From assembly GCA_965153455.1 (NCBI GenBank), contig OZ234493.1:32602213-32666212 (forward strand): a stretch of DNA of 64,000 nt. Direction: 5' to 3'. Below, one piece after another: positions 6,233-30,000 of the stretch (the stretch's first letter is position 1; each line of letters opens with the position of its first letter). The translations under genes were made by a program, and so were the position numbers. The notes below the pieces were generated by a model. The model did not search any database, had not been told where the DNA came from, and saw nothing but the letters and a program-made list of their open reading frames with translations. The DNA is from Sphagnum compactum (Eukaryota).

Positions 6233-9200
6233 ATGGCAACTCCTATCGGAGTCCCTCCAAAGATGATGATGAAGCCGGTGGAGGATTTTCAGCATCCTGC
6301 TTTAGAGCAGCTTCCTCATCTTGCTTATTGTATCAATGATAATCCTCGATTGGGTAAGGAAAAGGAAGCAAAAGTACAAGTGTTGGGTCAAGGATTTTTT
6401 GAAAGTTTGTTTGTTTCGTTTTTTGGAAAGAGTTTACGGAGATTGTGTGTGTGTGTGTGTGTGTGTTTTTTTTGGTTGTTGTTGCTGTGGGAAAACGTTG
6501 TGAAGTTGGAAAGAATGAATTCGTATAATTTATTTCCTTGGTGATTGATGTCTGAGGAGGAGTAGGAGGGAGGAGTTTTTCTGAAGAAGACGCTAATACG
6601 ATGTTATTGTTTGTTTGTGCAGCGACAGCAATCATCTTAGGCTTTCAGCACTACCTTACCATGCTGGGGACTACAGTACTGATCCCAACTCTTATATTTC
6701 GTAGCATTGGCGGACATTCGGTGGGTCCATCATCTGGAGCAAGAAACAAAGAGAGAGAAGAGCTAGAGCAAGCTTTGACACTTCTTTTTTGGGAATACTA
6801 ACTTCTTGAGCTTTCGCTTCTTCTGTCTGTACCTTGTGGGTTTTGGTGGTGGGGTGTTGAGGAGCAGTGGGAAGTCTGATTGTGAGGGTTTGCGATTGTA
6901 CACATTTGTGTTTGCAGGGCGATTTGGCTCGAGTAGTACAGAGTGCGCTGTTTGTGTCAGCTATCAATACCCTGGTGCAGACTATACTGGGCTCAAGACT
7001 GCCGGCAGTGATGGGAAACTCTTTCTATTTCCTTCCTATTACCTTGTCAATCGTCAATGCTCCTCGCATCGTCGACATTGGAGACCCGCATGAGGTGGGT
7101 GGACGACCCTGTTTTTTTTTCCTCTTCTCCTTTCCTCTTTTCCTTTCTTGCCCACATCCCTGCCTATCTGCATTCCTTTTTCTTCCCTCGAAAAAACAGC
7201 AACGATGGCTTGTTCCAACCCACCCATGTGCAGAGATTTGTGCACGCAATGAGGGCAACGCAGGGAGCTTTCATCGCTGGTTCAGCCCTAAACATCATTC
7301 TTGGCTTCAGTGGCATATGGGGCATAGCTGCCAGGTAAATGAAAAGCCCCATCTCCTCTTCTTCTGGTGCTTGAAAGCCCCGTCTCTTCTTCTCCTTTTT
7401 GTGCCATCCCATTTCTTGTCCTGTCTGTGTTTTACAAGAAGAACAACCCAATGCTCAAATTGTGGTCGGGGACAGACCTAAGAGCTTGAAATCATGTTTT
7501 CTTCATTCAACAGCTCTGTGTGGGTCAAGAAGAACTATGCCTTAATTGCAATACCCATCTAAATGAAAACCCTATCATGCAAGAACTCAGCGCAAGCCCT
7601 GAGTTCTGCAAGAATGTAAAGTTCAGAATACTTTGGTGATGAAGTTCTCTTTGTCAGTTCTAGTTCTGAGGCTTGCCTGTTGTAGGTGTAAGTTCTATCA
7701 TCAAAGGCTCTTGATGACAGATAGATACAGAGAGTTCTGATCCCATGAATGCTGCTGGGTGCAGGCACGTCAGTCCCATTGTCATTGCCCCTGTTACAGC
7801 CATTGTGGGCTTGGGCCTTCTGGAATATGGGTTCCCTGGGGTATGTTGTCTATGTCCCTATGTCAGTTGTGAGAATCAGCATTATCAGCATCATCTTCTT
7901 AGTGTTCCTTTTCTTCTCCAGTTGCATTGCAGTAAGTTAACCCTGAAATTGTATAAAGCAGTTTTATACAATAACCCCATCTTATTGTTCCTGGCTTTGG
8001 CAGATTGGCAAGTGTGTAGAGATTGGCATTCCAGCTTTGTTACTTATATTGCTCTTCTCGCAGGTAGGTACCTCCAACTCCCTCCTGAGATGTCTGCTAA
8101 TTTTGCAGCTTTTTATTTTTACATTTGTGTGTTTTTTATTTACTTCAATTTCTTGGATTTATTGAGTTCAACTCCACATGAAGCTGCACTTGAAATCATT
8201 GACTAACATCTTTCATTGTTTGTTCTGATGATCAGTATTTTAGGCATATCAACATTCGGAGATTTCACTTCTTCGAGCTCTTTCCTATAATCTTTGGGGT
8301 GGCAATTGTATGGGTTTATGCAACGATTTTAACTGTAGCTGGAGCTTATAATCATGCTAGTGCACTGGGACAAATCCATTGTCGCACTGACCGGAGTGGT
8401 CTGGTCTCCCATGCACCCTGGTAATTTATTATTGGTTTTTCATTGTATGTCTTTTCTATATTCTCTCAAGCTGATGCAAGCTGTAGCATGATCATTCAAG
8501 TCTTAAATCTTCTTGTGGGCCAATTCCTTTGCATACAGGGTTCGGCTCTCTTATCCACTTCAATGGGGTTCTCCTACGTTCAATGCGGGAGATGCATTTG
8601 GAGTCATGTCAGCAGCATTTGCTGCTCTTGTTGAGGTACAAGTTGCTCCTGCGATTTTGGCTTGTGTAGTAGTAGTAATAATCGTGTACTTTTTCTTCTT
8701 CTGTTGTTTTACTAATGGTTGTGGGTTTGACCTTGCAGTCAACTGGTGGGTTTTATGCACTTTCACGATTGGCAGGAGCAACTCCTCCCCCACCTGTTGT
8801 TATTGGTCGAGGAATTGGATGGCAGGGTATTGGGGTCTTGTTGAATGGTTTCTTTGGTACCTTCACTGGTGCTACAGTTGCTCCGTAAGTACACAACTGA
8901 TGAACTTTACACTGTCTTATCTACAGAGTGATTGGTCTTCATTTAATCCAATGGTTTTGTTTTGGATCTGTTGTATCTAATAAGAACTCCATTTTTCTTC
9001 TGCCAGTGAAAATATTGGCCTAGTTGGACTCACGCGTGTTGGAAGCCGAAGAGTGATCCAAATTTCTGCCTTGTTCATGTTTTTCTTCTCCATATTTGGT
9101 GAGTGTCTTTTGCAGGATATCCTGCTTTACACTTGCTATTGTACTCAAAAAACAGTTAGTTTGCATGGACAGCATTTTGAGGGTTTTCCTTATAATGTTA

Positions 9201-13522: not shown

Positions 13523-13666
13523 TTATTTGGTGCATTATGGACACACCCAATTTCCTATGGGAACCTCTAAAAGTGGTGGTGTCCAACAACCTATATGCCA
13601 TCCTCTAAAACAACGATCACAAACCAACCTAGTTGTTGCACCTTGTGATTATTTGCACAACATGCA
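13523..13666 (-). pseudogene. Decayed PHD finger at the integrase C-terminus of the older element
   Basis: Manual translation gives CMLCK*SQGATTRLVCDRCFRGWHIGCWTPPLLEVPIGNWVCP*CTK* (C4HC3 pattern with two internal stops). Confidence 0.85.
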
Positions 13667-14500
13667 TTGCAAACATGCTAGAACTATGGCCAATGATGGA
13701 TCCACTTGGCCATCCACATGCGAAAGGTGACATGGAACACAATTCCACACATGGTTTTTCCATAATCAACCATCCCGACCTTCCAACAACAAAACCCTAG
13801 AAAGTAAAACCTTTTCATACAAAGAATGACACACCCAACCATCACATTTAATGTGCTAAGTGTTGTATGTTGCAAATAAACATAATCCTTAGGTTCAAAC
13901 CTTAAAACCTTGGGTCGATATCCACATCCATGGATGGTGGCATATCATAATGTAATATTTTGATGTTATGCAATGGCCAAGTTTTCCATAGCCATCACAT
14001 GGTTCTTTTGAACAAGGCTACATATTGCTCACAAGCTTGGACCCACACATTGGGATCATCCAAATTAACCACATAGTCCACATCCCTACAAGTGGATGCC
14101 AATAATTGGGGTTCATGCCTAAAAGGCAAAAAGTAATAGGAAAATGATGCAAGGGATGTTTGCTTGCTGAATCGATATCCCATGGGCAACAATGGTAGTT
14201 ATATGTCCCAATCAATTATATGCCCCTTTTGTAATCCATATTTTTGCAAACCTTTTTTCACCATCTGTACCATTCTTTTAGCTAAACCATTCACTTTAAA
14301 ATGATCACAAAAAGTAATCCTATGGCTGTCGTGACGTGTAGTGTCGTGACATACAGTGTCGTAAGGTGTACATTCATAGGAAACTCTACTAACAAAAAGA
14401 CTAAAGCCAGTCAAAGATATAAACTAATCAACTAAAAAGAGATACATGCACACATATATATACAATGCACACGTGAGACTGAGATGAAATTCTCATGTAT

Positions 14501-14508
14501 CCCCCCCC
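14501..14508 (-). other. Polypurine-tract candidate (G8 on the - strand) just downstream of the integrase-PHD stop
   Basis: C8 run at 14501-14508, about 40 bp past the TGA at 14550 and about 175 bp from the element end. Confidence 0.55.
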
Positions 14509-14549
14509 AGACCTGAGCCGGGAAAAGCATGGCATGGTCTGAGTAGGAA

Positions 14550-15620
14550 TCAAGGTGCTGTAGGAGAACATGACGAACAGTACCAATTGCCAACGGGAAC
14601 TTGAGTGAGCTCCGGCTTGAGGCAGAAGAGATGGTATCCACCATTACAGTTGTCGCAAAGCAGCATCTGATCAGCATCGTCCGTCCTCTGACATACCTGA
14701 CATGGATAATCAAGTGGAGGAATCCAAGTCGACGTGATGATGGTAGGGTCCAAGTTTGGCAGGTGGCAAGGCGCACAATTTTTGGAATGATCCCGAATTG
14801 TGCGTCCGTCAGCTCCTTGTAGCTCCAACACACCTGAAGGCCTGATCGCCTTAATCCTCAAGATGGTGCGACCGGAAGAAGTGTCTAAAGTATCATTGGG
14901 TTGTCGCTGAAGATACACAAAATCACCAACATCAAATTGTCTCACCTTAGGTTTGTAACTGCCACCTCGTGTGTGTGCATACCGTAAGGTGTCTCGATGT
15001 TGTGCAATGGACAGGTTTTCCATGGCCATGGGCATAACCCTCCTGAATAGAGCGGCCCTTTCTGCAATGACCTTAGCCCAAATGGTTGGGGAGTCCAAGT
15101 CCACAACTTGGTCCATTTGAGCAACAATGGAAGAGGGTGGAATGGGATGTCTCCCAAAAAGTAAAAAGTAAGGGGAGAAATGAGATAAAGAGGTGTGTTT
15201 GGACATCCTGTAACCCATGGCGATGTAAGGGAGGGCCAGGTCCCAATCCTCTTTGTTCTTAGTGAGGCAAATCTTCCGAAGTCCCTTCTTGCATGTTTGA
15301 ACCATCCTTTCTGCAAGGCCATCAGCTTGGGGATGATCTCTTGAAGTCCGACGATGGTCAATGAGAGCATGGTCAAGTAGGTCTTGGAATTCTCCCCTGA
15401 ATTCTGATCCTTGATCAGTAAGGCATTCAACACAAGCCCCAAACCTACTTAGAACCTGTTGTAAGAAAGCCTGGCTAGTGCTGTGTGATGACTTGTCCGG
15501 TAGCGCAACAAGTTTGACCCACTTTGAAAAATGCTCAATCATAATCATGATGTAGACATTACCCCTGGAGGTCTGTGGTAATTCTCCAGCTAAATCACAT
15601 GACCAGCGATAGAACATGCC
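14550..15620 (-). CDS. Integrase catalytic core plus C-terminal PHD finger (3' part of the polyprotein, after a frameshift)
   Basis: DDE motifs WSCDLAG, LTDQGSEF, DGLAERMV. Also SPYFLLFGR and FDVGDFVYL. PHD CQVC...LLCDNC...YHLFC...WYCSSC at 14568-14702. Confidence 0.92.
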   Translation of the reverse strand, partial: GMFYRWSCDLAGELPQTSRGNVYIMIMIEHFSKWVKLVALPDKSSHSTSQAFLQQVLSRFGACVECLTDQGSEFRGEFQDLLDHALIDHRRTSRDHPQADGLAERMVQTCKKGLRKICLTKNKEDWDLALPYIAMGYRMSKHTSLSHFSPYFLLFGRHPIPPSSIVAQMDQVVDLDSPTIWAKVIAERAALFRRVMPMAMENLSIAQHRDTLRYAHTRGGSYKPKVRQFDVGDFVYLQRQPNDTLDTSSGRTILRIKAIRPSGVLELQGADGRTIRDHSKNCAPCHLPNLDPTIITSTWIPPLDYPCQVCQRTDDADQMLLCDNCNGGYHLFCLKPELTQVPVGNWYCSSCSPTAP

Positions 15621-18600
15621 CTCTCCAATGGTAATGAGGAGCGAGAAGGCTATAAGTACGCTTAACTCCAAAATGTCCAAGCTCCGAGTGTACTTTCTGA
15701 ATAAGACCAGGCCGTTCATGTGGTGGTGGAACCACTCTGTCGCCTTGTGGTAAGCATCGGACGAGGTGATTGTCCCTCCATGAGTAGCGTTTGGATCGCT
15801 GTTGTATGCGATCCCGCTGACTTGATGTAACTTGGGGAGGGTATTCCCCATGTTGAAGAAACCCCAGAGTGTCCAAGTCCTCCCATATATCCAGAATGGG
15901 ATGCTCAACCAGGTTACATTGCAGTAATGCAAGATAACTAGATGCCTCAGATACATGTATTGCTGGGATCTGGTCAAAATCTTGCCTGGCTTCTGAAAAA
16001 TCTTCAGAGGTAGTGAGGGGTCTTCGTGACATGGTATCCGCATTCTGATGTGTAATACCTGGTCGGTGAATAACCTTGAACTCATACTCTTGAAGTATAA
16101 GCGCCCAACGAGCTAACTTACCAGTAAGCTTATCGTTGGTCATCAACCACTTGATAGGCTGGTGGTCCGTATACAGAGTGAAATTGGTGCCATAAAGATA
16201 GGGCCTGAAATGTATGACGGCCCATACAACAGCAAGGCACTCCCCCTCGTATGAAGAGTAGTTGCTCTCAGCCTTGTTGTTGCTTCGAGATGCATAGGCG
16301 ATAACATATTCCTTGCCTTCCTCATCAAGTTGGCCCAGAATAGCTCCAATACCAAGAGCACTCCAGTCAGTGTGTAGAATGAAGACCTTGCTGAAATCAG
16401 GTCTTCTTAGAATGGGGAACTCTGAAAGCTTTTCCTTGAGTGTGTTGAAAGCTTCCTGAGCCTCTTCACTCCATGTCCAAGCAACATCCTTCTTTAACAA
16501 TGCATAGAGAGGATGAGCAATAGTACTGAAGTCTTGGACATAAATCCTGTAGTAATTACATAGTCCGATGAAGCTCCTCAAAGTGTGAACATCAGTAGGA
16601 TCGGGCATCTCCAAAATGGCTACTACTTTGGCCCAATGAGCCATAATACCATTTGGCAAAATTCTGTGTCCAAGGTAAACTACTGAGGTGACAGCAAACT
16701 CACACTTTTTAGGATGGATCTTCATATTGACTTCGTGGAGCCTCTTGAATAACTCCTCAAGATGAGCCAAGTGCTGTAGGAGTCCCTTGCTATGCACTAG
16801 GACATCATCTATGTAGCATTTCAGGAAATCTGCCCCTTCGAGAACTTGGTCCATGACTCGTTGAAAGAAGACAGGTGCATTCTTCAATCCAAAAGGCATC
16901 ACAAGCCATTCCCACAACTTATTGCTTCCATGGAATGCTGTTTTCTTGCGATCTTTTGCAACGAGCACAATCTGGTTGAAGCCTTGCCTCAGATCCACAA
17001 TTGTGAAGATGTTTGAGTCTCCAATGCTATCAAACAGTTCTTCAGGGATGGGCATGGGGTACCTGTCTTGAGGTGTAACCAGGTTCAAAGGCCTATAATC
17101 CCCGCACATCCTTTTCTCAGTCCATAATCCAGCTGAATCCTTCTTTGCTGGCATTACTGTAGCGGCTGCGAAATCAGAACTTGATGGCTGAATGAGACCA
17201 GCCTCATGGAGCTCTTTGCATCTTTCATCTACCAATTCCCATTCATGTTTGCTCAACCTATGCCTCCTTCGATAAACGGGTGTCTCATCTGTAAGGTCTA
17301 TAGAGAACTGCATGGTCTTACACCTACCTAAGTCTTTCATTGAGAATGCGAACACATTCTCATACTTAATTAGCAAGTCTGTGACCTGGTCTCTCTCCTT
17401 CTTGGTGAGCTGGTTCCCCATAACAAAAGGGTAGTTGGAAACACATGGAATGGAGTTGGAAAGTGTGTTTGAAGAACCTGATGTATTGGGTTCTCCATTA
17501 TCCAACTCCGTAGATTCGTAGAAGGTTGTAATTGTTTCTCCAGAAGCTGATGTACCTCCAGGTGTATTGGACATAACTTGAGTCAAATTACATGGTACCT
17601 CCTCCCCCCCAACACTGAGAGTGAAATGTAGAGTGTTGAAGATAGGCAAGTGTACTTGGTCGGGGTGCCATGTGGTTGCATCGTCAGAGCTGCAAGCTGA
17701 TTGAGTCAGTGTTGGTGTTGTGTACATTTGAAAGAGTACACAGGTTACCAATAACCATGTAAGGGAGTTCAGGTCCATGCTTCTCCCGAGTAGAGCGTTA
17801 CGCTCCAATCTAGTCACCTTGGTGTGACTAGTAGTGCCAGTTTGGAACCCCATAGCCCTTTCTCTTTCTTCTGGGCTTGGTTCATCCCAAGTGGCTGAAG
17901 CATGACGATACACCAAGCCTGGTCCATCTCCCTGAAAGGCGTGTGCTCCAGGGAAGGAGACAAAGGTGGGCCAAACACCTCTTGGTTTTCCTATTGTATT
18001 CGCAGGAAACCAAGGAGGTTTCTCTTGCCTTGTAACTGGTTGGCAAGAGCTCTGATCATCCAATATGTGAGAAACCTGCAGGTTGTGGTCTCTGATGGTG
18101 TATCTCAGAGCCAACTGCAGAATTGAAAGTGGTGCAAGGTTGGTCCACCAGTTGCGCAGCTGGTGCGCATAGGAACCGCATTGTGCCGCATCGAGTAGGA
18201 GTGGCTCTCCAAGGTAATGTTTGACAAGTGTGTAGTGCTCCTGGACTTTCTCCCTCTGGTCAAACTGAGAAGGGGTGTTCTCAATTACATAACCAAGCGT
18301 AGGGGAAATGGATTGAGCCCAGGTAATCAATCGTACCATGTCTGTGAAGAGACCGGATCTTGTGTCACTCAAGCCTTCTCCAAATCCAGCTGCTGAAAAT
18401 CCTTGACACTCCCAACCTGAAATGATGAGGTCCACGGGGCCAAGTAATTCCATATGCTTATTCTGAATTAATTGTATGTCAGGGGGCAAGAAAGTGAAAC
18501 TGGCCTTCCATGCGGTGGTTGTAAACTGTTGTGGAAATCTGGTTGTGAGCTCCATCATTCTCGATGCTGCCACTTGCCTTGCAATAGGATCAATGTCTAC

Positions 18601-18705
18601 GTAGAAATACCTTCGGACCACCATCCCTGACTGTAGTAGGGCTTCGAGACCTGTACCAATACCACCAAAGAGCTCTAGTAATGTAATCCCTTCCTTAGGT
18701 GGTGT
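15621..18705 (-). CDS. Pol segment: DNMT3-like C5 cytosine methyltransferase (~17745-18687), reverse transcriptase, RNase H and integrase N-terminus
   Basis: MTase motifs I LELFGGIG (upstream of the ORF-track start), II [53 protein letters not shown]...LLGRSM. RT has CGDYRPLN, DLRQGFNQ, MPFGLKNAP and YIDD (16804-16815). RNase H has LHTDWS, EGECLAV, YTDH. Integrase HH is VHSELGHFG. Confidence 0.92.
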
Positions 18706-20010
18706 CTAGGTGATTAGCTGACGGAGTAATGGCTTAATCGGTTCGCCATGGCTCTCCATGCTTTCAAAACTAGACAAAGCTTTGACCAAGGGCTTGTAGG
18801 CTACTTTGAACCTTTGTAAAACCTCTGGTCCATGTTGAATGTCAGTAGGAACCACCCTCAAGCTTTCAGTAGCTTGAGCGTAAGCTATCTCTTCTTCATC
18901 TCCCTCTATCCATTCGTGGCTAGCTTGTTGGATGTAGGAAATGGTGTGTGCTTCCTTGAGCATACAATGGTGAGCCATAGGACTATGGTTCCCATGTAAA
19001 TCAAGGGGTATGTATCCCAGGTGGTGGCCATCAGTCTCCCAATCCACTCGGTAGTACGCATGTTCGAACCAATTGTCAATTGTAAAACCTGGTGGAAACA
19101 GGGCCTCTTGCCCAATGAGCACATCGTAACTAGTGGCATTGGTGACTAAACATCTGACCTGTAGGCAAAGCTCCTGATCTGTACCTTCATTGAAATTAAG
19201 TGCAATCAAATCCGAGCTCTCCCCAAGTACCTCCTCTACGCTCCCACTAGCGGTGCGAATGTGCCACATAGATTTTCGTAGTTTGGAGTCGAGCATGCCC
19301 ATCTTCTTGGCGAATTGAACTCCAAGAATCACTGGTTGGGCACCTGTATCAAGAAGAACCACTCTGGGTGTATGTCCTCCCACCTGGATTGCTGACTTAG
19401 TATTGTCGACAATGGCAACTCCGGTGGCGATGGAAGTTCTCTCACTAGGCACCACCTTCAGAAATGAGTGAGAGACTTTGTGGAGAGAATGGCTATCCAC
19501 AACGCCTTTGCTGAGTAACAAATCCACAAGTGAGGTGTTCTTAACTCCCTTTTGATATGTGAATGTAGAATCAGAGGTAGGAAAGCTCACTAGTTTAGCC
19601 ATGCCAGAACTAGTGACTAGATTACGAACGCCATCTGCAACACGTGAACCAATCGAATGTCTCTCCAAGGTGTTGGATGGGACCTCTGTAGCATGTGGAT
19701 TAGGGGTTGGTAGAGGACCTGATGTAGTGTTCAAGGTATCCTCTAAGATTGCAATTATGTCCCTGGTGCTTAGCTTCAAATCTTGAAAACTAAACAATGG
19801 TGTATTCACAAGCTTTTGCGCCACTTCATGCATTTGAAGTTGGCATTCCATAAGCTGATCAGTGGAAAATTGTGTGTTTTCCTTATGTACATGTACTCCT
19901 GGGACATGAGAATTTGATGCCCTAACAGCTTGTGGTGTAGTAGTCTCCTCCCCCCTCGCCAACAAGGTGCCTTCTTCTTCCATGTTGAGAGGACGAAAAG
20001 ATTGTGGCAT
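18706..20010 (-). CDS. Retroviral-type aspartic protease segment of the polyprotein
   Basis: VLLDTGAQ active site, IRTASG flap and YDVLIG. Same frame as gag and pol, separated from each by a single stop codon. Confidence 0.88.
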   Translation of the reverse strand: MPQSFRPLNMEEEGTLLARGEETTTPQAVRASNSHVPGVHVHKENTQFSTDQLMECQLQMHEVAQKLVNTPLFSFQDLKLSTRDIIAILEDTLNTTSGPLPTPNPHATEVPSNTLERHSIGSRVADGVRNLVTSSGMAKLVSFPTSDSTFTYQKGVKNTSLVDLLLSKGVVDSHSLHKVSHSFLKVVPSERTSIATGVAIVDNTKSAIQVGGHTPRVVLLDTGAQPVILGVQFAKKMGMLDSKLRKSMWHIRTASGSVEEVLGESSDLIALNFNEGTDQELCLQVRCLVTNATSYDVLIGQEALFPPGFTIDNWFEHAYYRVDWETDGHHLGYIPLDLHGNHSPMAHHCMLKEAHTISYIQQASHEWIEGDEEEIAYAQATESLRVVPTDIQHGPEVLQRFKVAYKPLVKALSSFESMESHGEPIKPLLRQLIT

Positions 20011-20016
20011 GACTGC

Positions 20017-21852
20017 TCAAGCTCCTTTAGCCCTGGTAATAGGACTTGAACCAGATGCGAGTCCATCAGTTTGAATTACCTGCCTAGTGGCAGAAACTCT
20101 GGGTGCCACACTAGTTTCTTGTGCTGCGACATAGGAAGGGCAAAAAGAAGTAGCCAATTCTGGTGTGAGACTAGAATTGTGTGGAGTGGAAAGAACATAC
20201 TCCCCAACCATTGCATCGTGTGGAAGGCCATAGAACGACCTAGGAGGTCCCTCGCGTGATCCTGAACCTTGTACAGGTTGGGCATGACTAGCTGATTGGG
20301 AGGACTTGCCTTTTAGATTAGCAAGTTGGGCCCTCAATGATTCGAGTTCATTTTGTAAAGTCTGAACTTGAATTGCATGGGCTTGAAGCACCTCCCTCTT
20401 ATCAGCATTGTGCTCCTTCTTCTTAGCATTCTTGTTGGAATTACCCTTGGTGGGCAAAGCCTGAGTGGAATGCTGAGGTGCCTTGGCTTTTGGTTGAGGG
20501 ATAGTGGAAGATGCTGGCAGATTTTGCCATTGTAATCGGAGTTGCTTCCGCTCTGGGAACTTGGCAAAACAGACAGATTCATGATGTCCCTCTTTCCCAC
20601 AATAATCACAAAAGAGATCCTCGGAAGGAATGTTGCACTCACTAGCTTTGTGGGCAGGATTGCCACAGTAGTTGCAAGAAGGTAGGATGGGTGTAGCCGA
20701 GTGCACCGCTTTAGTCCTTGAAGAAGAATGTGATGATCTAGTTGGTGCAGCTGTTGTAGGTTGAGGCCTTGAACGTGATGGAGGCCTCATAGTACTGGCC
20801 TCATAGTGTGCATGAGCCAGTTCTAGCTTTTCGGAAATGTTGTACACATCCAGCAACGTGTACGAGTCTCCAAATTCTGCAAAGACTCGTTGCAAAACCT
20901 GTGCGTGGAGTGTTGGAGTACCTTCCAAAGAACGAAGATACCGATGGGCAGCTTCTAAGTCGGTGATGCTCTGGGTATCCTCTTTGAGTTTGAGAAGCCT
21001 CCTGTAAAGCATCTTGAGGGTTTCATCCTTCTGCCGAGAGAAGGTGGCGAGCTGCAGAATTTTTTCAGAACTTTTGACTGGAAATTCCAGCTCAAGAATT
21101 CGAAAGAATTCCCCCATTGGATCAACAAAAGCTGGCGCATCAATGGTGGGAGGAATGTTTGCAGTAGCAGCAATGAGTTGTTGAGGAGAGAGGTTTACCG
21201 AGGTAGGTACCGGGTCTGGATTATTCGGCACAGTCCCGTGATGTGCAATTGCAGCTTGTAATGCAGCTTGAGAGGCGGTGGCGATGGCTATGGCGTAAGC
21301 TGGATTGGGAGCTTGGGTGACACCCAAAATCCTTGCAGAATGTTGCTCGTAGACATCCAATGCCTCATAATGCACATAACGGGCCAATTGCTTAAATGCA
21401 AACGCTTCGGTGTAATTAGCACCATACTTCAGCTCCAACTCACAGACCACTGTTGAGAAAGTTGCCTTGAACTCCCTCAACGAAATAGTACCTGGCCTTC
21501 CGCTGAACTTCTCTATTCTCCCAGAGGAACTGCTGACCTCCATGGTGTATATGGGTGTTGAAGTCACAGCTTGCAACGGAGTATATGGTGATGGTGTGAA
21601 AGCAGGTGCAGTAGTAGGTGTACCCCACTGATTAACCCCTCCAAATGGGCTCTGGTGTGTTGTTGATGTAGTGTAACCCAAACCTGAATTCCTAATAGGA
21701 GTTGTACTAGATGATGATGGTGCTGTGGATGCTTGGTGATACCGTCGTGAGCATCGTGAACTCAAAGATATTGGTTCAAAGGGTTGTGTGTTACTTCGTA
21801 ACTGATACCTTGGCTCTGGATGAGTAATGCTACTTTCATCATCCGAGGACAT
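20017..21852 (-). CDS. Gag protein with two CCHC zinc knuckles
   Basis: 611-aa ORF with IEKFSG, RQKDET-type capsid-like motifs, and knuckles CNYCGNPAHKASEC and CDYCGKEGHHESVC. Confidence 0.88.
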   Translation of the reverse strand: MSSDDESSITHPEPRYQLRSNTQPFEPISLSSRCSRRYHQASTAPSSSSTTPIRNSGLGYTTSTTHQSPFGGVNQWGTPTTAPAFTPSPYTPLQAVTSTPIYTMEVSSSSGRIEKFSGRPGTISLREFKATFSTVVCELELKYGANYTEAFAFKQLARYVHYEALDVYEQHSARILGVTQAPNPAYAIAIATASQAALQAAIAHHGTVPNNPDPVPTSVNLSPQQLIAATANIPPTIDAPAFVDPMGEFFRILELEFPVKSSEKILQLATFSRQKDETLKMLYRRLLKLKEDTQSITDLEAAHRYLRSLEGTPTLHAQVLQRVFAEFGDSYTLLDVYNISEKLELAHAHYEASTMRPPSRSRPQPTTAAPTRSSHSSSRTKAVHSATPILPSCNYCGNPAHKASECNIPSEDLFCDYCGKEGHHESVCFAKFPERKQLRLQWQNLPASSTIPQPKAKAPQHSTQALPTKGNSNKNAKKKEHNADKREVLQAHAIQVQTLQNELESLRAQLANLKGKSSQSASHAQPVQGSGSREGPPRSFYGLPHDAMVGEYVLSTPHNSSLTPELATSFCPSYVAAQETSVAPRVSATRQVIQTDGLASGSSPITRAKGA

Positions 21853-22092
21853 GGTGTTGTCCCATGCCCCAAAATTTTGTACTAATATAATCCCTCAATT
21901 ACAAAATTCTAACACAATGTATGGTTTGAATCTCCCTAATTGCAGGACGATAGTATGGCAGAATGTAGCAAGATAAGCTGCAAGACACAAGACCACACAA
22001 TGCACGACCACAGTGCGAAGAACACAGGAAACAGGACTGCAGTACAGTAGTACGTAGGACGCAGGACGGCAAAGCGCAGGACGGCAATACGG

Positions 22093-22350
22093 TGATGTCA
22101 GCAGTGACGTAGGCAGGACGCAGGACGAAAACACGATGACGTCAACAGTGACGTAGGACGACAGGGCGCAGGACAGCAGTACGGTGACATCAGTAGTGAC
22201 GCGGAAGGACGGTAGTACGATGACGTCAGCAGTGACGCAGGAGGACGGCAGCACGATGACGTCAGCAGTGACGTAGGCAGGACGGCAACACGATGACGTC
22301 AGCATTGACGTAGGCAGAATGGCAACACGATGACGTCAGCAGTGACGCAG
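22093..22350. promoter_or_regulatory. Tandem array of seven as-1/ocs-like elements (TGACGTCAnnnnTGACG) in the retroelement leader
   Basis: Units at 22093, 22137, 22185, 22221, 22257, 22294 and 22331. Each has two TGACG-type half sites exactly 12 bp apart, as in CaMV as-1. Confidence 0.7.
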
Positions 22351-22416
22351 AACAGTCCGACGAACGTCGACGGAAGTCGGACGGACCAAGGTCGCAGCGA
22401 TGGTGCTGCAGCTCGC

Positions 22417-22960
22417 AACGTTGCGACGCTGCGGCGCTGCTGTGGCAGCGTGCTGCTGAAGCGATGGCGCTGCGGCGCTGCACTGCTGCTGCAGCGTAGG
22501 CGCTGCGGCGCTGTTGCTGCACTGCTGCCGCAGGGATGGCGCTGCGGCGCTGCACTGTTGCTGCAGCGCTGCACTGCTGTCGCAGGGATGGCGCTACGGC
22601 GCTGTTGCTGCGGTGCTGCACTGTTGCTGCGGCGCTGCGGCGCTGTTGCTGCGGTGCTGCACTGTTGCTACGGCGCTGCACTGTTGCTGCAGCGATGGCG
22701 CTGCGGCGCTGTTGCTGCGGCGGTGCTGCTGCGGCGGGGCTGCTGCAGCGATGGCGCTGCGGCGCTGTTGCTGCGGCGGTGCTGCTGCAGCGATGGCGCT
22801 GCGGCGCTCTTATTGCGGCGGTGTTGTTGCAAGCGCTGTTGCGGCGGCGGTGCTGCTGCAGCGATGGCGCTGCGGCGCTACGACGCTGCAGCGTTGTGGC
22901 GCTGTAGCTCGCGGCAACGGCGGAACGCAACGCCCTGCGGCGCTAGAGCTCGCTGCTGCG
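22417..22960. repeat. GC-rich degenerate repeat island (gcggcgct / gctgca / gcgatggcgct units) in the retroelement leader
   Basis: Many copies of gctgcggcgctgcactgttgctgcagcgatggc-like units, very dense in CG and CWG. Confidence 0.85.
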
Positions 22961-23107
22961 AAGTGATGGCAGGCGGCGCTACGCTGCCCTGCAGCGATGG
23001 CAAGCGGTCGGCGCCGCAATTCTTGTTTTTTTTTTTCTTTTTTTTCGACAACTTGAAGAGAGAAAAAGAATGGGAGAAAGAGAGAAGTTTTGACACCTGA
23101 TCTCTAA

Positions 23108-23612
23108 TGTCTCGACTTCGTTTGTCCCTGCTTGGTTGGTTGTAAGAAACGCAAAGCTCCCTCCAACAACACCAGTAGCAACAGTAGTAACGCGCTCCTT
23201 CCGGCAACAACAACACGAGTAGCAACAACTCAAGAATTTCAAAAGCACAAGAAATCTGTTGCTTTCAACATGAAGCAACAGGGAATATAGTTTTTCTAGA
23301 ATTGAAAATGCAAAGCAAGAAAGAAATGAAATGTATGTAGACGGTGGCCGTGCAATGGCCGCTGTGAGCATCTAGAAATCCTAGCTTATGATGGAGAAAA
23401 CTCCTAACAAAGGAATTCTAGAAAAACTAAAGGAGAAGGGCAAAGCTTGGCCCTTTTATACAGCCACCAAAGCTGAAACCCTAAATACCTAATAGCGTAC
23501 AGTCACTTATGAACGCACATTAACCCTACAAACGTACATTAGCCCTCAAAAGACATGATGGGCATGCCCGTAGCCGGCCATCATGTATGAGGCCGTGCAT
23601 ACGGGCATGACA
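23108..23612 (-). promoter_or_regulatory. 5' LTR-like module (505 bp, TGTC...GACA bounded) with TATA box and no 3' counterpart
   Basis: On the - strand it begins TGTCATG (23612), contains TATAAAAG (23460-23453) and ends GTCGAGACA (23108). Confidence 0.55.
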
Positions 23613-26339
23613 TGGTTAATTAGAGCTTGCCAACACAAATTTTGAATTTTTCTTCCAAATTTCGTGCATTAATCCATGAATACTTCTATTGGAACACTAA
23701 ATTTACTCAAGAAAAACTTCGTGCCCTAATCCATGAGTACTTTTGTTGGAACACCAAATCTACTCAAGACCTAATCTAAAAATGCATAAATGGCCCTCTC
23801 ATTATTTTTGTCTCAAATGGTGGCAATTCAATCCACTTCAAAAAATGTTCAATCATAACCAACACATAGTAGTTATGATGAACAATAAGCTTAATGGCCC
23901 AACAAAATCCGAGCTCCATTGGTATCCAAGCCCCATGATTGGTAGAGGTTGTAAATGAAGGGTGGGTGCATTAAATGAGGCATGAACCTAGTCACACACT
24001 ATGCATTGTGAACCTCCATTGAACCTCCAATTACATGCCTTTCCACTAATATTGGCCTTGAAGCAAATTGTAGGTTTGACGTATCCCAAAATGTCCCAAC
24101 TCCTATGGGTATGTCTCACACTGCTTTCTCACATTTTTGGTCATGGTACCACTTGTACATGCTCATCTTGCCATATCCTGAGAAGGTGTTGGCCTTTCCA
24201 ATGATATCTTTTGGCCTTTTGAAGAACCCAATCTTTTTCCTTGAATGTTAATCCTACATCCAATTCCCTTATTTGTAAATAGGTCAACATTTGGGCATCC
24301 CCAAAGATGTCCATAGATCTAATGTCATCAAGTTTAATTTCCAAATTCCTAGAAGTGCCTAAAGGATTCACTTGAACTTGACATGATACCTCTTAGCAAC
24401 CATTTGCCATGATGCAAATAAATGAAACAACATGCCAACCAAACACTATCTCCAAATCAATTTCCCCATGCCAACGTGCTCCAATGGTGTCCAAATCACT
24501 AGCACTTGGGTTCCTATTCAACCCATCCACATCCTTATTAACTATCATGGCCCAATGTTTGGCATCAAAATCATATTCTTGAATAATGAAAGCCCATCTT
24601 GACAACTTCCCCATGAACTAGTTAGACTCCATGAGCCACTTCAATGGCTGGTGATCTATGACCAAATGAATGGGCTACCAAACAAATAACATGTGGCCAT
24701 GGCCCACACAATTGCCAAAAAATTCCCTCACATGAACTATATTAGGCCCTTATTTGGTTGTTGGACTAGCTTGCATAAGCAACCACAACTTTTGATTTTC
24801 CTCATTAGGTTGTATGAGGACTGTTCCAAGTCCCAAAACACTCCAATTTGTCTGCAACTGGAAAAGACAACCCCTAATAGGTCACCTCAAAATGGGTGCA
24901 GAATTAAACTTAATTTTCAACTCTTAAAATTTTTGTTCTTGTGCATCCCCCCAAATGAACTTTTCATTGACCTTGGTAAACTAGTTAAAGGTTTCGGAAT
25001 CCGACTAAAACCTTTGACAAATTGTCGGTAATAGTTTGCCAACCCAAAGAATGCTCTTAACCTACTAACATCAATTGGTCTTGGAACCTTGGAAATTGCA
25101 TCCACCTTGGCCTTTCGAATTCCCAAACCTCATGGGTAAATCATGTGGCCCAAATATTCAACTTGGGATTGAAAGAACTTATATTTTCCTGGGGTTTAAA
25201 CCATGCACCCCCAAACAGTCAAACACATTTTGCAAATGATGATTATATGTGCTCCTCCATGGTGGAATTAAACACAATGATGTTCTCAATGTAGCATGTG
25301 GCAAAATCCAAACTTGCAAGCACCCGATCCATCACCTTCTGGAATTCTATAAAGGCATTCTTCAACGCAAAAGGTAAGAATTTCCATTGATGTACAAACA
25401 ATCCTTCCCATTTTGGTCAATGCCCCATAATGCAATCTTCACCTTGTCATTTTCACAAAATGGCAATTGGTGATATCCAGATCATAAATCCAAAGCGTTA
25501 AACACCTTCGTATGGCCAATTAAATAAAAAATCTCCTTTAACAATGGCATGGCATATTTTTCTGGACATGTCATGTACACTTGTTGGTACGTCTATAATA
25601 TCCACACATCTAACATTTAATATAATTGCAAAGATGTCTTTTTTGGCAGGCGTATTGTGGCTAATGCATACTCCCCTTGAAAAAGCTCCACCAACCCTAC
25701 CTCTAAAAGTTCTTTTATTCGAGCTTTAACCAAAACTAATTTCATATCATTTAATTTGTAAAATCTTTGAAAAATAAGGGTATCATCTAAGCTAATGTGT
25801 ACTTCTTGCCCCTTGAATTTACCCAGCTACTTGAGGTTGAAAGCAAAACAATGAACATAATCATGTAACAATTGTCGCATCTTGCATGCCTCACTTCCTA
25901 TTACCATGAGATCGATTTTTGGTTCCCATGTTTCTATAATTGTAGGTGCCTTGGTATTGGATGGTGACTCATCCTTAATGCTCGAGGTTGAGGCTACACC
26001 TTATAATTGCTACATGAAGCCCCCATTGCATGTGCATCTGAAAGTCCCTTCACCTTCTTCAAACAAGTCCAAAATCTTGGATGCATTCATCATGTATGTT
26101 CCTCATTCCAAACATTGAGCATTCATGGCATCCATCACCCTTTCCCTTCGTGCAACATCCCATAATTGCCAAGGGTGTTTGGCCCATGTAGGATCACTAG
26201 ATGTGACCTTGTGATCATGCCACCCCCCCTACATGAATGCACTTGTCCCAATATGAAATGTAGGATAAGGTGAAGTAGAAAAATGGTTTAGTGGATGGGT
26301 AATTTACAATCATCGTTGTTCAACCAAACCTAGGTTAAT

Positions 26340-27030
26340 GACCCAAGTGAGATAGTTCAAGTCCATGACTTGACTAAGAAATCAATATTTGATGGCCTTT
26401 GATAAACCAAAAACATATGTGGTGTTTATATGGAACCATGTAACACACTTTTGGTTTTTAGCATTGGGTTTTGCCCAACAAGAATGTTTGGAATCCCAAA
26501 ACATACTAGGACCATTATCACAAAAAAATATGAACTTGGAAAGTTCATGATTATGGGCAAGGCTCCCTATGATTGGCCCACCTTGTTGACAATGGCAAGA
26601 GGTGGTTGATCATCATGTTGCACTTGTGAGATGTGTTTTGTATTCAAAATAACATTCACAATAAGGCTTGCATGTTGTGGCACCAAATCAAATGCCCATT
26701 GCAACAACTCAAGTGGTGTTAAATTAATCTAGAACTAACATAACCAATGTGCATGTGATTTCACTAATGTAGCATCCTCCAAAATTGGTTTGCCCACCCA
26801 AGTATGAACTTGGCACCATGCCACCAAAACTTATGACCGAAAATCACATATTGGAAGAAAATTCTCCAAAAGGTAAATGAATGGTTATTCTTGAATGGTA
26901 TGTAGATGTGACAACACTTGTAATAGGTTCCAAATTTTTTTTATCACATGTCAAGTAATCCACCACATGTGTTTACATGAAAATGCCCTTGACATGGCCA
27001 TCCAACTATCACTATATTCATGGGGCCAAC
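26340..27030 (-). pseudogene. Decayed C5 cytosine methyltransferase domain of the older element
   Basis: Manual translation gives GPMNIVIVGWPCQG (26986-27027, motif IV), FIYLLEN (VI), GKPILEDATLVKSHAHWLC*F*INLTP (VIII) and FLSQVMDLNYLTW (X, ~26341-26381). Confidence 0.85.
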
Positions 27031-30000
27031 ATTATCCAAATCTTATGTTTCTTGTCATGTCCTCAAGTGGAGGTGGGACATCATTTACATCCAAATTTCC
27101 TTCTAGTAGTCCCATCCCCCAAGGTAACATGCTAGCAAATCCAGGCAATATGGTAACACCACCCACATATCCAACACCTCGTGCAAAATATTGGACTTGG
27201 AGTTGTGTGTGATGCCCATTTCCTAATTGCCACCCAAGTCTATGGGAAGTAGTTTCCTCCCAAAAGTTCAATACAAATCCCATGGGATACAACACGACAC
27301 CCCAAACCAACACATCATAAGATTAGGCATTTGTCACCACAACTTGGACTTGAGTGGTTGATTGTTTTGTTGGGTGGTTGGGGTTCAACTGCACCAAAGT
27401 ATTAGTCTTGGTAAGCCCATGGGCCTTCTTTGATGCACCCATTGATGTCTAAATCTAATATGGGCATGGTTGAAGGTTTTCATTTGTCATGCCAAGACCC
27501 ACAAATGTTGATTGGCCCAATGTCACTGGTTGGGCACTAAAATCCAATACAACCTCTTGAAGGCAAAATGTTTGCCCATGTCCATTGCTCTTGAGCTAAA
27601 AACACCTTCTTTGTTGCACACCAAAACCACTCTTGGTGTCAACAATGCCCAATCAATGGTGGGTTGTGTCGAAAGGTTGGATAACTGGCAATTGATGTTT
27701 GTCATGAAATGTCCACCTCAGAATGTATTGTTTCTTGAGGTTTTTTCTTTAAGTTAATTGTTGGGAACAACTTTGATGTCATATCTATAATCACACATGC
27801 CATTCTTCCACTTTCACATAAAATGGCCACAAGTCAAAAAATGGGAATTGGCTGTATTTTAAGGTTTGCCAAGGTGATAGCCAAAATAATGAGGTGTGGC
27901 AAATGGATGTAGCCACCCCCAACATCACCCCACACACATCCAACCTAGAAGATGAAGATCATCATTTTGTTAACTTTCTGAGAACATGCCCCATGCTTGG
28001 GGATGTGGATGTATTAGTTAACATTGTTTTAGCCAATGTGAATGATTGGGGAAGATGCACTTAACACCTAGCCTCCCCCCTTTGAGTGTCGAATCCCTTA
28101 ATGGGCCACTTTAAAAAATCATTGTATTAAACTTTTAATGCAATACTTGAACTTGGAGGACTTAGGTATTTCATTCAATTTCAATATATATGTTTAATAT
28201 CTGGAATGTTTTTTACCCTTCTTTTCAACACCATAAATTTATTTTTTGATTATGTAGTTTCAAACAACTGGTATTGACTAACTATGTTTTTATCATGAAA
28301 TTGATGATGACCATCACATTATCACATTATTGTAGAAAATGAAACATTGGAAACCATTGGGGAATAGATTAACAAATGAAGATTTGTTCAATTTCCAAAA
28401 TGCGTTCCTCTGAAAACTCAATGATAAAGAAAAAAATCATTATTGTGGTAATGAATATAATGATCTATCAACAAATGCAAAAGTACAAAATAGTTATTTT
28501 CAAGTTACTTTTTGTTAATGTGTTGTATTTTCCCCCAATTCTTTATATCTTTATTTGTGTGAATCACTCACTTTTTTCTCAAAGCATGTAAAATCATTCA
28601 TTACATTAAGAGTTTCAATTTTTTGCTGCAAATACATTAAATTTGTCATCATGTTTCAAGGTTGTGTGGAAAGGAACTCATTTTTTTCATAACAAGAAAG
28701 TTATCGTTTAATGCATCCATGTAGATTCATTGCATGCTCACTACTTATTTGCACCCATGACCTTTCTCTTGATCATAAGCTTTGAATAAGGAATTTAACC
28801 TTGTTGATTTGGTTAAAGGTAAAAACACCCTATTCAAATAATCTTCATAAAATTTTCACATGACAAGAAAAAACTTTTCTTTAAGAAAAAAAATTGTGCT
28901 AAAATGTTGACATGAAATAGATAATTATTTTTTGCAAATTTTTAATGCTTTTATAAGAACTTGTAAACATGTCCAAAAATAATAATTCTGGGTAAATTTT
29001 TCATTAAAATGTTGACACACTTCAGTTTTTGGGCAATTTTCATTCAATTTCAATAGTTATCTACAAACTTTTTGCTAAAATTCGCTAAATCTTGTTTGGA
29101 ATGATTACTAACAATTCCACATTAAAAAAATTGGACCCAAAAAAAAAAAGCACACTACTCCAAAATAACAAGCAAGTATTTTGTTTTAAACTATTATGAT
29201 TTGTATAAAAAGATAAACTTGCCATCCATCCCCCAACCAATTTTGGCTTAAGGATTGTCTAAGCATGAAACATTTGAACCCACGTAGGTTAGGAGGGCTA
29301 TGGATGAAATTATATAAAAAATGTGAATGAGATTGGACTTAAATAATAAAAATAAAAATAGAACAAAATTGATCCAAACTTGGATTATCACCATAATCGA
29401 ATAATTTGAAGTGTGACTAGGATTAACTTGGTCTAATCAAAACCCATTTGGAACCAATCCAAAAATCGACCAATATGCAATTGAAATGGATGTTTGGAAT
29501 GGTTGTGGCCTAGACAAATCTAATAGAACATGAAAAATTCAATTAAATGTAAAAAAAATTGAATTGAAATTAGTTTGAGAATAGACTGAAATTAATTAAA
29601 CGCATCATGCCATTTATATATTTATTATAAATCCTTTTATGAAATATCTAGACCCAAATGATACCATAGCTTAGAAAAAATTGAATAGATGATTTGAAAA
29701 GTTAAACAAAATTGAGCCTAAATTAGTTTGAGATCATAGACAAATTAATTAATATTATATAGTTATTATATTAAAAGTATTACACTTGGGCTTCACATTA
29801 CTAGTGATGATCAATTGATGAAAAAAATGAATTGATTTTTTGAAAATAAATTTCAAGTGAAGTATTTGAATGACATTGCATGCAACCTGAATTGAAATTC
29901 AATTTCAAATAAATTAAATCAAATTGAACAATTGGATTAAAATTCAATGGAATTGAATTCAAATTTAATTGAAGAGAAATGAGATGCAAATTGGTGGAAT

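Follow-up and report, generated by a model that had tools for sequence, protein, structure and literature searches.

The window described here is a stretch of 64,000 nucleotides from Sphagnum compactum (GenBank assembly GCA_965153455.1, contig OZ234493.1, positions 32,602,213 to 32,666,212 of the forward strand), and all coordinates below refer to it. It harbors, on its minus strand, a Gypsy-type retroelement of the Gypsy-DNMT3 group, 9,286 base pairs in length (14327-23612) and bounded by the termini TGTCATG...CACGACA. The 45 codons at 14568-14702 that form the subject of this report specify the last domain of its integrase, a PHD finger. The same interval is full of stops when read on the plus strand, and the feature therefore belongs to the minus strand, where an open reading frame of 520 codons from stop to stop (14550-16112) ends with the residues ...DYPCQVCQRTDDADQMLLCDNCNGGYHLFCLKPELTQVPVGNWYCSSCSPTAP, followed by the stop codon TGA. 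Residues C471 to C515 of that frame (45 residues, from first to last cysteine) correspond exactly to 14702-14568, display the canonical C4HC3 spacing (CxxC-x11-CxxC-x4-HxxC-x14-CxxC), and match the whole of the Pfam PHD profile (PF00628, positions 1-47) with an expectation value (E) of 8e-13 and a score of 48.6 bits against a cut-off of 24. The same frame also encodes the integrase catalytic core (rve, PF00665, E 4.5e-12). The finger is thereby confirmed as real, far beyond what chance would produce.

The stop codon at 14550-14552 lies five codons past the last cysteine of the finger and is also TGA in 73 of 74 matched related copies, which indicates that the finger truly ends the polyprotein in the window's subfamily. 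An earlier reading of the letters without database searches (the sequence-only reading) had placed a PHD finger at the integrase C-terminus in place of a chromodomain; the fusion, at the point where chromoviruses carry that domain, was borne out, with the qualification that 'in place of' is true of position only. No chromodomain (PF00385) was found in the open reading frames of the window by Pfam search at E up to 0.01, and none appears, among the matches listed, in the Pfam annotation of the integrase-PHD relatives or of the matches to a DNA methyltransferase (DNMT) search described below. The features of the element, all on the minus strand, are as follows.

14327-14500, minus strand: 3' repeat unit B, ending ...CACGACA at 14327 (homology edge; the terminal A2-B2 is missing here)
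14550-14552, minus strand: stop codon TGA closing the polyprotein (reading of the frame; shared copies as above)
14568-14702, minus strand: PHD finger of C4HC3 type, 45 residues, the last domain of the integrase (Pfam, PDB sequence matches, AlphaFold2 (AF2) and VIA-align)
14760-14939, minus strand, approximate limits: SH3-like beta-strand C-terminal domain of the integrase (AF2 strands, residues 241-291 of a 363-residue query)
14763-14780, minus strand: NCAPCH motif ending the SH3-like domain (sequence; kept in relatives)
15330-15611, minus strand: integrase catalytic core rve (Pfam PF00665, E 4.5e-12; residues 168-261 of the frame 14550-16112)
15619-15729, minus strand, in another reading frame: H2C2 zinc-binding domain of the integrase (Pfam PF17921, E 9.8e-7)
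16084-17121, minus strand: reverse transcriptase (RT) and RNase H (Pfam RVT_1, E 1.5e-28; RT_RNaseH, E 3.7e-39)
17716-18693, minus strand: DNMT3-like cytosine-5 methyltransferase, between protease and RT (PF00145, E 6.9e-8, 32.7 bits against a cut-off of 22)
18706-20016, minus strand: protease region, aspartic (Pfam gag-asp_proteas, E 1.6e-6)
20017-21894, minus strand: gag with two CCHC zinc knuckles, CNYCGNPAHKASEC and CDYCGKEGHHESVC, read by eye in the translation; no Pfam family above threshold in this region
23301-23612, minus strand: 5' terminal repeat unit A, with its TGTCATG start at 23612 (homology edge across related loci)

The integrase-PHD fusion across the green lineage

With the 363-residue integrase-PHD sequence as query and an E limit of 1e-5, the search recovered 543 proteins close to it in length and 310 that are longer. 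Among those listed, PF00628 is accompanied by the integrase domain rve in all 36 near-length relatives that cover at least 90% of the query, and the two domains likewise occur together in 119 of 120 longer relatives, the single exception covering 55% of the query. Named hosts of these proteins include Calypogeia fissa, Sphagnum magellanicum, Klebsormidium nitens, Haematococcus lacustris, Pleodorina starrii, Volvox reticuliferus and Chromochloris. The fusion of integrase and PHD finger is thus a trait of the family, from chlorophytes to Klebsormidium, liverworts and mosses.

A simple pattern match recovered the complete C4HC3 arrangement in 150 of 240 relatives; fragments account for many of the sequences without it. 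In an alignment of 44 sequences with 47-95% identity to the query (residue numbers being those of the 363-residue query), each of the eight zinc ligands is retained in 39-44 of the relatives, and M326, L327, D330, G335, P349, G351 and W353 in 40-42 (42 for D330, and 40 each for P349 and G351). In the NCAPCH motif, C289, A290, P291, C292 and H293 are each present in 41-43 of the same 44. A histidine is also found four residues upstream of that motif, and the motif with this histidine is retained in at least 41 relatives; together they may form a further zinc site, placed between the SH3-like domain and the finger.

A scan of metagenome contigs returned at least 607 matching stretches, of which at least 587 encode a relative; 80 loci (L001-L080) were retained, and 70 of these include the internal 3' end of the element. 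Pairwise ratios of nonsynonymous to synonymous substitution (dN/dS, by the method of Nei and Gojobori, with stop codons skipped) were calculated for the window together with 64 gap-free loci, corresponding to 65 copies and 2,080 pairs. The ratio was 0.31 for the PHD finger, 0.31 for the catalytic core and 0.32 for the SH3-like domain, and 0.57 for the part between the core and the SH3-like domain (residues 171-234). An intact, gap-free reading frame across integrase and PHD finger is present in only one of the 70 loci, and decay after insertion inflates these values, so that only the comparison between domains is meaningful; in that comparison, the PHD finger is under purifying selection and is as constrained as the catalytic core.

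The finger is not followed by the same sequence throughout the family. Among near-length proteins that show the C4HC3 pattern, 29 of 34 stop within 15 residues of the finger; among the longer ones, 35 of 116 do so and 78 of 116 continue for 51-428 residues beyond it. The extensions, which are absent from the window's subfamily and are found in relatives such as P0143, P0168, P0179, P0194 and P0229, were seen by eye to share a motif, LHGRxVxKxFxD...FWGxVxY. Weak, sub-threshold matches to a Tudor family (PF21743) were obtained for 5 of 20 extended proteins scanned, the best with an E of 3e-4, and the extension may therefore represent a second reader domain, Tudor-like in nature, in other lineages. 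A module of two readers, if real, would fit a chromatin-reading role for the integrase tail.

Ends, decay and nested insertion of the element

The limits of the element were defined by comparison with related copies: the nucleotide homology of most of the 80 loci stops at 23610-23616 on one side and at 14322-14328 on the other. No pair of long terminal repeats (LTRs) and no terminal direct repeat was found in the window copy by self-BLAST, by short-word BLAST of its ends or by repeat search. Fuller copies are organized instead as A1 (approximately 310 base pairs), internal region, B1 (approximately 175 base pairs), A2 and B2, with A2 present in 41 of the 70 loci and B2 as well in 37, and a short form that ends at B1 is found in the other 29 loci and in the window copy (A-internal-B). 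These split direct repeats agree with the DIRS-like repeat structure of the Gypsy-DNMT3 group. Approximately two bases separate B1 from A2 in the fuller copies, and contigs from three RNA libraries contain a joint from 23612 to 14327 (back 9286), with GT or AT between. Target duplications were assessed in 17 distinct copies (22 rows listed, minus two duplicates and three with misaligned ends), and a perfect 4-base-pair duplication was found in nine of these, with three of four bases matching in five more; the 4-mers that flank the window copy are ACCA and GCCA. The TG..CA termini, together with the 4-base-pair target duplications, indicate that joining was done by integrase. The 5' untranslated region contains two blocks of tandem repeats (22065-22356 and 22390-22990, minus strand), one composed of 36-48-base-pair units that each carry TGACGTCA, and the other a GC-rich array with a periodicity of approximately 14 base pairs.

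The window copy has accumulated several lesions. It lacks 103-106 bases at 15620 that are present in all 12 of the loci listed, and the loss of approximately 106 base pairs at this point places the H2C2 domain and the catalytic core in different reading frames. Loose ends at 15620 were also seen in contigs from RNA libraries. Two premature stops interrupt the remainder of the frame: a TAG at the protease boundary (18706-18708), which is TGG in 34 of 43 matched copies, and a TGA at the boundary of protease and gag (20017-20019), which is CGA in 21 of 35. The presence of sense codons at these points in most copies argues for an ancestral state in which a single polyprotein extended from gag to the PHD finger; reconstructed from these sequences, its order is gag, protease, DNMT, RT, RNase H, integrase and PHD. 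Contigs from four RNA-library runs cover the element, including the PHD region, and such libraries can contain DNA, so that this coverage is not proof of transcription. Across the integrase-PHD region, 63 of the 64 gap-free copies display between 1 and 11 in-frame stops and no insertion or deletion, and C-to-T and G-to-A changes form the majority of differences in contigs matched to 14200-23700 of the window. These sequence patterns suggest decay through deamination of methylated cytosines.

The young element is itself inserted into a second, far more decayed element of a related subfamily, which it splits in two, as demonstrated by tblastn comparison against the window. Its parts, also on the minus strand, are as follows.

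23714-27553, minus strand: protease, DNMT-like region, RT, RNase H and the N-terminal part of the integrase of the older element (tblastn, combined E 2e-90)
13529-14324, minus strand: C-terminal half of the older integrase, downstream of the insertion (tblastn)
13532-13666, minus strand: decayed PHD finger of the older element, with 8 of 8 zinc ligands and two in-frame stops (tblastn, 40% identity over 91 residues)

The older finger reads CMLCK*SQGATTRLVCDRCFRGWHIGCWTPPLLEVPIGNWVCP*C at approximately 13532-13666 and is of a 'GWH, non-acidic' type. The claim of the sequence-only reading that a decayed second PHD finger ends the older element was thus upheld, as was the presence of an NCxPCHL stretch ahead of the finger in both elements (NCAPCHL in the young one and NCVPCHL in the old). 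The two elements are indeed homologous, but they share only 40-49% amino acid identity and belong to different subfamilies, so that the older one is not an earlier copy of the same element. On one side of the insert the older integrase breaks off at ...ALINH, and on the other it resumes with (R)ITFCDHFKVNGLAKRM; joined, the two parts align without a gap to the corresponding residues of the young copy, ALIDHRRTSRDHPQADGLAERM, and this continuity across the insert establishes that the young element landed within the older integrase gene. L065, a copy of the older family that has no interruption, could be aligned along one flank only of the insertion site, at 69% identity, and the insertion point accordingly rests on protein-level continuity of the older integrase rather than on comparison with an empty site. 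A tandem duplication of approximately 57 base pairs was noted by eye in the older integrase (23654-23770, minus strand), just upstream of the insertion point. Approximately 6 kilobases from the end of the older element, a fragment of open reading frame on the plus strand (6861-7481) matches the family Xan_ur_permease just below threshold (26.9 against 27 bits), and may correspond to an exon of a host transporter gene.

The predicted ligand of the finger and its possible roles

The kind of PHD finger present was assessed from both sequence and predicted structure. A search of all PDB sequences with the 66-residue C-terminus returned 90 chains at E up to 1e-3, of which the best was WSTF (1.4e-15), followed by KMT2D, CHD4, KMT2C, Lid PHD1, JARID1D, ATXR5 (9.2e-14), EHD3, BAZ2B and KDM5A; further matches included KAT6A, DPF2, DPF3, KDM5B, ORC1b, BAZ2A, UHRF1, AIRE and PHF21A. 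AF2 modeling of a 68-residue segment with a 38-row alignment gave the finger predicted local distance difference test (pLDDT) values of 88-92 and two short strands, and a model of all 363 residues gave values of 84-87 over the finger and below 50 in the linker at 301-304. In a structural ranking by VIA-align over the 600 best PDB chains from Foldseek, 161 chains had a Z score of at least 5. Model and superposition together establish that the window's finger has the PHD fold.

The top structural match is the complex of the ATXR5 PHD finger with histone H3 (Z 9.2, root-mean-square deviation 1.1 angstroms over 52 residues, 46% identity). It is followed in the ranking by the double PHD fingers of MOZ/MORF and DPF3 bound to H3, then by UHRF1, BAZ2A 'in complex with unmodified H3K4 histone peptide' (Z 8.0), ORC1b 'with unmodified H3 peptide' (Z 7.6, 46% identity), and JADE1, CHD4, TRIM66/24/33 and KDM5. 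All 50 of the structural neighbors listed belong to the class of PHD fingers that bind unmodified H3, and titles that name such complexes include those for ATXR5, BAZ2A, ORC1b, TRIM66 and UHRF1. The likeness to BAZ2 and KDM5 PHD1 fingers noted in the sequence-only reading held to the extent that both are among the nearest proteins, but ATXR5, WSTF, KMT2C/D and CHD4 score equally well or better.

PHD fingers that read H3 trimethylated at lysine 4 (H3K4me3) carry a cage tryptophan two residues before the zinc-binding histidine. The residue at that position is glycine in 42 of the 44 aligned relatives, with no cage tryptophan, and by this sequence criterion the aromatic cage for H3K4me3 is absent from the finger of the family. 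None of the K4me3-specific readers ING, BPTF and TAF3 appears by name among the 60 PDB sequence matches or the 50 structural neighbors listed. The closest structural neighbor provides a more detailed guide. In the ATXR5 complex (PMC5499861), the backbone of Pro60 and Gly62, in a Pro-x-Gly loop, grips A1 of H3; Asp41 and Asp44, which follow the beta-1 strand, hold R2; and K4 lies in a narrow pocket of main-chain carbonyls that is selective for the unmethylated lysine. P349, G351 and D330 of the family finger stand at the motif positions that match the ATXR5 contacts to A1 and R2, as read by motif and not by alignment or superposition. Reading of H3 unmethylated at K4 (H3K4me0) by the family finger is, on the basis of these models, plausible.

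It is proposed, as an evenly balanced proposition, that the finger binds H3 with unmethylated K4 and tethers integration to such chromatin. The finger would engage the free N-terminus of H3 through A1, R2 and unmethylated K4; the H3-bound finger would then tether the complex of integrase and cDNA to nucleosomes that lack H3K4me3; and docking on chromatin would be biased away from active promoters, a job similar to that of a chromodomain, with a different mark being read.

Several points weigh against this proposal. UHRF1, whose PHD finger is a close structural neighbor, has been solved with both unmodified and H3K4me3 peptides, and likeness of fold therefore leaves selectivity for K4 unfixed. 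Most nucleosomes are unmethylated at K4, so that a reader of that state would provide weak targeting. The acidic stretch before LLCD, which the sequence-only reading had treated as characteristic, fails as a feature of the family, the DDAD patch being variable and confined to roughly one third of the 44 relatives (aspartate at 321 in 13, at 322 in 15 and at 324 in 10). Open reading frames that run past the finger in other relatives indicate that it is not always the terminal or sole module; the window copy is dead and cannot make integrase; and its nested insertion, along with a similar one in L011, are isolated cases. In 40 distinct 3' flanks (33% G+C), a weak preference for A at +1 was the only trace of a target consensus, and of 54 two-kilobase flanks, three contain Gypsy-like coding remnants and 23 match another locus. 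This analysis gives no sign that integration is directed, and as a set of flanks that has no control counterpart, it neither supports nor excludes a preference for chromatin state. Binding of the unmodified H3 tail is plausible from sequence and predicted fold; block of that binding by K4 methylation and an effect on landing sites are, like H3 binding itself, inferred.

The presence of a methyltransferase in the same polyprotein raises a further possibility. In a phmmer comparison of the window's DNMT region with the fetched proteins, a homologous region was found in 32 of the 38 integrase-PHD polyproteins of at least 1300 residues. Three of the six that produced no match are too short upstream of RT, and one is an odd tandem-integrase model; P0187 and P0190 bear a PHD finger, and their sequence ahead of RT, over 500 residues in each, shows no similarity to DNMT, so that the finger can exist without the methyltransferase. 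The reverse search, with the DNMT domain, recovered 35 longer proteins, nine of which reach the integrase, and PF00628 is present in seven of those nine. By sequence, the pairing appears strong, if not absolute, and common descent may be its cause. Five of the DNMT relatives (P0256, P0259, P0264, P0272 and P0273) are annotated as ordinary proteins of Marchantia polymorpha, Closterium and Sphagnum fallax, and some host 'DNMT' gene models may therefore be retroelement reading frames.

This pairing is one argument for an alternative in which the finger, besides or instead of acting in integration, serves the element's own methyltransferase as a gate similar to the ADD domain, sensing H3 with unmethylated K4 and placing or licensing the DNMT on the new copy or around it, for example while it is still bound to the integrase complex. 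Animal DNMT3 proteins carry PWWP and ADD domains and those of land plants and algae carry neither (PMC12344493), and retrotransposon methyltransferases of the Gypsy-DNMT3 group methylate CG sites de novo (PMC5890265). The two domains are, however, separated by approximately 1,000 residues that comprise RT, RNase H and integrase, and the protease probably separates them physically; no ADD family was found among the Pfam matches of the window at E up to 0.01, the finger being a single classical PHD; and both the existence of P0187 and P0190 and the possibility of mere common descent weaken the argument from co-occurrence. Such a gate is considered unlikely.

A second alternative, which we regard as distinctly unlikely, is that the finger acts as a state-blind tether, gripping A1 and R2 of H3 regardless of K4 and thereby raising the efficiency of integration or nuclear retention. 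The residues conserved throughout the family are those assigned to the A1 and R2 contacts (P349, G351 and D330), the stretch expected to face K4 (321-325) varies, and the UHRF1 finger has been solved with both peptides; these points favor such a tether. ATXR5, however, selects unmethylated K4 through main-chain carbonyls (PMC5499861), a mode of selection that needs no conserved side chains, and the variability of this stretch is therefore not evidence against K4 selectivity.

It is also conceivable, if highly improbable, that the finger binds a host or element protein other than a histone that bears an H3-like N-terminus, and so recruits a host factor. The structural neighbors do include the UHRF1 finger bound to peptides of PAF15 and Stella; but no ART or AR[TS]K motif is present in the pieces of the element's own polyprotein, no candidate partner is known, and this class of PHD fingers is dominated by binders of H3. 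Finally, a finger that recognizes H3K4me3 and directs integration toward active promoters is barely credible: such readers do exist in the PHD superfamily, but the glycine at the cage position and the lack of ING, BPTF and TAF3 among the listed matches both oppose it.

The preferred reading, in which the finger tethers integration to chromatin with unmethylated K4, can also be combined with the methyltransferase. In that combination, which we judge quite improbable, the DNMT3-like domain and the H3K4me0-type finger would form a split pair of writer and reader that supplies an ADD-like gate, such that the element would land, and methylate itself, in chromatin free of H3K4me3. If true, the element would control its own epigenetic state, through a pair of domains kept from chlorophytes to mosses.

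Comparison with known systems

The closest published relative is KnitGypsy-Dnmt3, for which Gypsy-like domains and DIRS-type repeats are described in the legend of Figure 4c of de Mendoza et al. 2018 (PMC5890265). The element described here resembles it in the placement of a DNMT3-like domain within a Gypsy-type Pol and in its DIRS-like repeats, arranged here as A1-internal-B1-A2-B2, and two proteins of Klebsormidium nitens found with the present query (P0012, E 1e-167, 55% identity; P0064, E 6e-122, 52% identity) both contain rve and PHD domains. It differs in its host, in that the nearest named relatives of the window's protein are from a liverwort and a moss, and the sources of the RNA libraries are labeled as moss metagenomes. 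The relatives also reach Haematococcus, Pleodorina, Volvox and Chromochloris, a range wider than the 'K. nitens lineage' of PMC5890265. The main text and three supplementary files of that paper (figures not included) contain no mention of a PHD finger, and a search of the literature found no published PHD finger on a Gypsy-DNMT3 integrase. The present result, which is mainly one of annotation, thus extends the published group to mosses, liverworts and chlorophytes, and establishes the PHD finger as a constant part of it.

Both the fusion of a reader domain to an integrase and a Gypsy family that bears a DNMT were already known, and PHD fingers encoded by transposons are on record. REM1 of Chlamydomonas is reported to have an integrase with both a PHD finger and a chromodomain. 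PHD fingers have been described in REM1 and Gypsy-7a_cRei of Chlamydomonas, in CR1 LINEs, in Chlamys PLEs and in Ginger1-9_HM, and a role in chromatin recognition has been suggested for such transposon-encoded fingers (PMC6673714, PMC8557442, PMC9940879, PMC2836005). In Gypsy-7a_cRei, the finger is listed among the Pol domains (legend of Figure 6, PMC9940879), and PHD is described as a common accessory domain of Chlamydomonas transposons (PMC8557442). In the consulted portions of these reports, the position of the finger in the protein is either different or unstated, and none is linked with a DNMT; the consulted sections of two surveys of plant LTR elements (PMC6317226, PMC3350952) make no mention of a PHD finger.

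Two additional systems provide partial parallels. ATXR5 (PDB 5vab; Bergamin et al. 2017, PMC5499861) is a plant protein, and its PHD finger is the best structural match (52 of 54 residues), but the ATXR5 finger is joined to a SET domain responsible for H3K27me1 and the one described here to an integrase, its binding being predicted. The EpiLTRs (10.64898/2026.05.21.726589) similarly combine one or more DNA methyltransferases with a chromatin reader in a single retrotransposon; however, their complement consists of adenine and cytosine methyltransferases with a chromodomain, and their own DNMT is stated to be distinct from that of Gypsy-DNMT3, whereas the pair found here is a DNMT3-like domain and a PHD finger.

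A further comparison is with the chromoviruses, the Ty3/gypsy elements in which a chromodomain is found at the C-terminus of the integrase (Gao et al. 2008, as cited in PMC6673714 and PMC3350952). In both cases a small histone reader follows the C-terminal SH3-like domain in a Gypsy-type integrase, and tethering to chromatin is proposed; the reader here is a zinc-binding PHD finger that is likely to recognize the unmodified N-terminus of H3, in contrast to a chromodomain that recognizes H3K9me2/3, and the element here possesses split direct repeats instead of LTRs and, in addition, a DNMT. Members of the family are plentiful in sequence derived from bryophytes (one metagenome scan gave at least 587 stretches); the family also extends throughout the green lineage, and it therefore offers a testable fusion in tractable hosts. 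If tethering to nucleosomes with unmethylated K4 proves true, the PHD finger would represent a second, independent solution to the choice of chromatin by Gypsy integrases, beside the chromodomain, and one that resides in a family that also writes DNA methylation.

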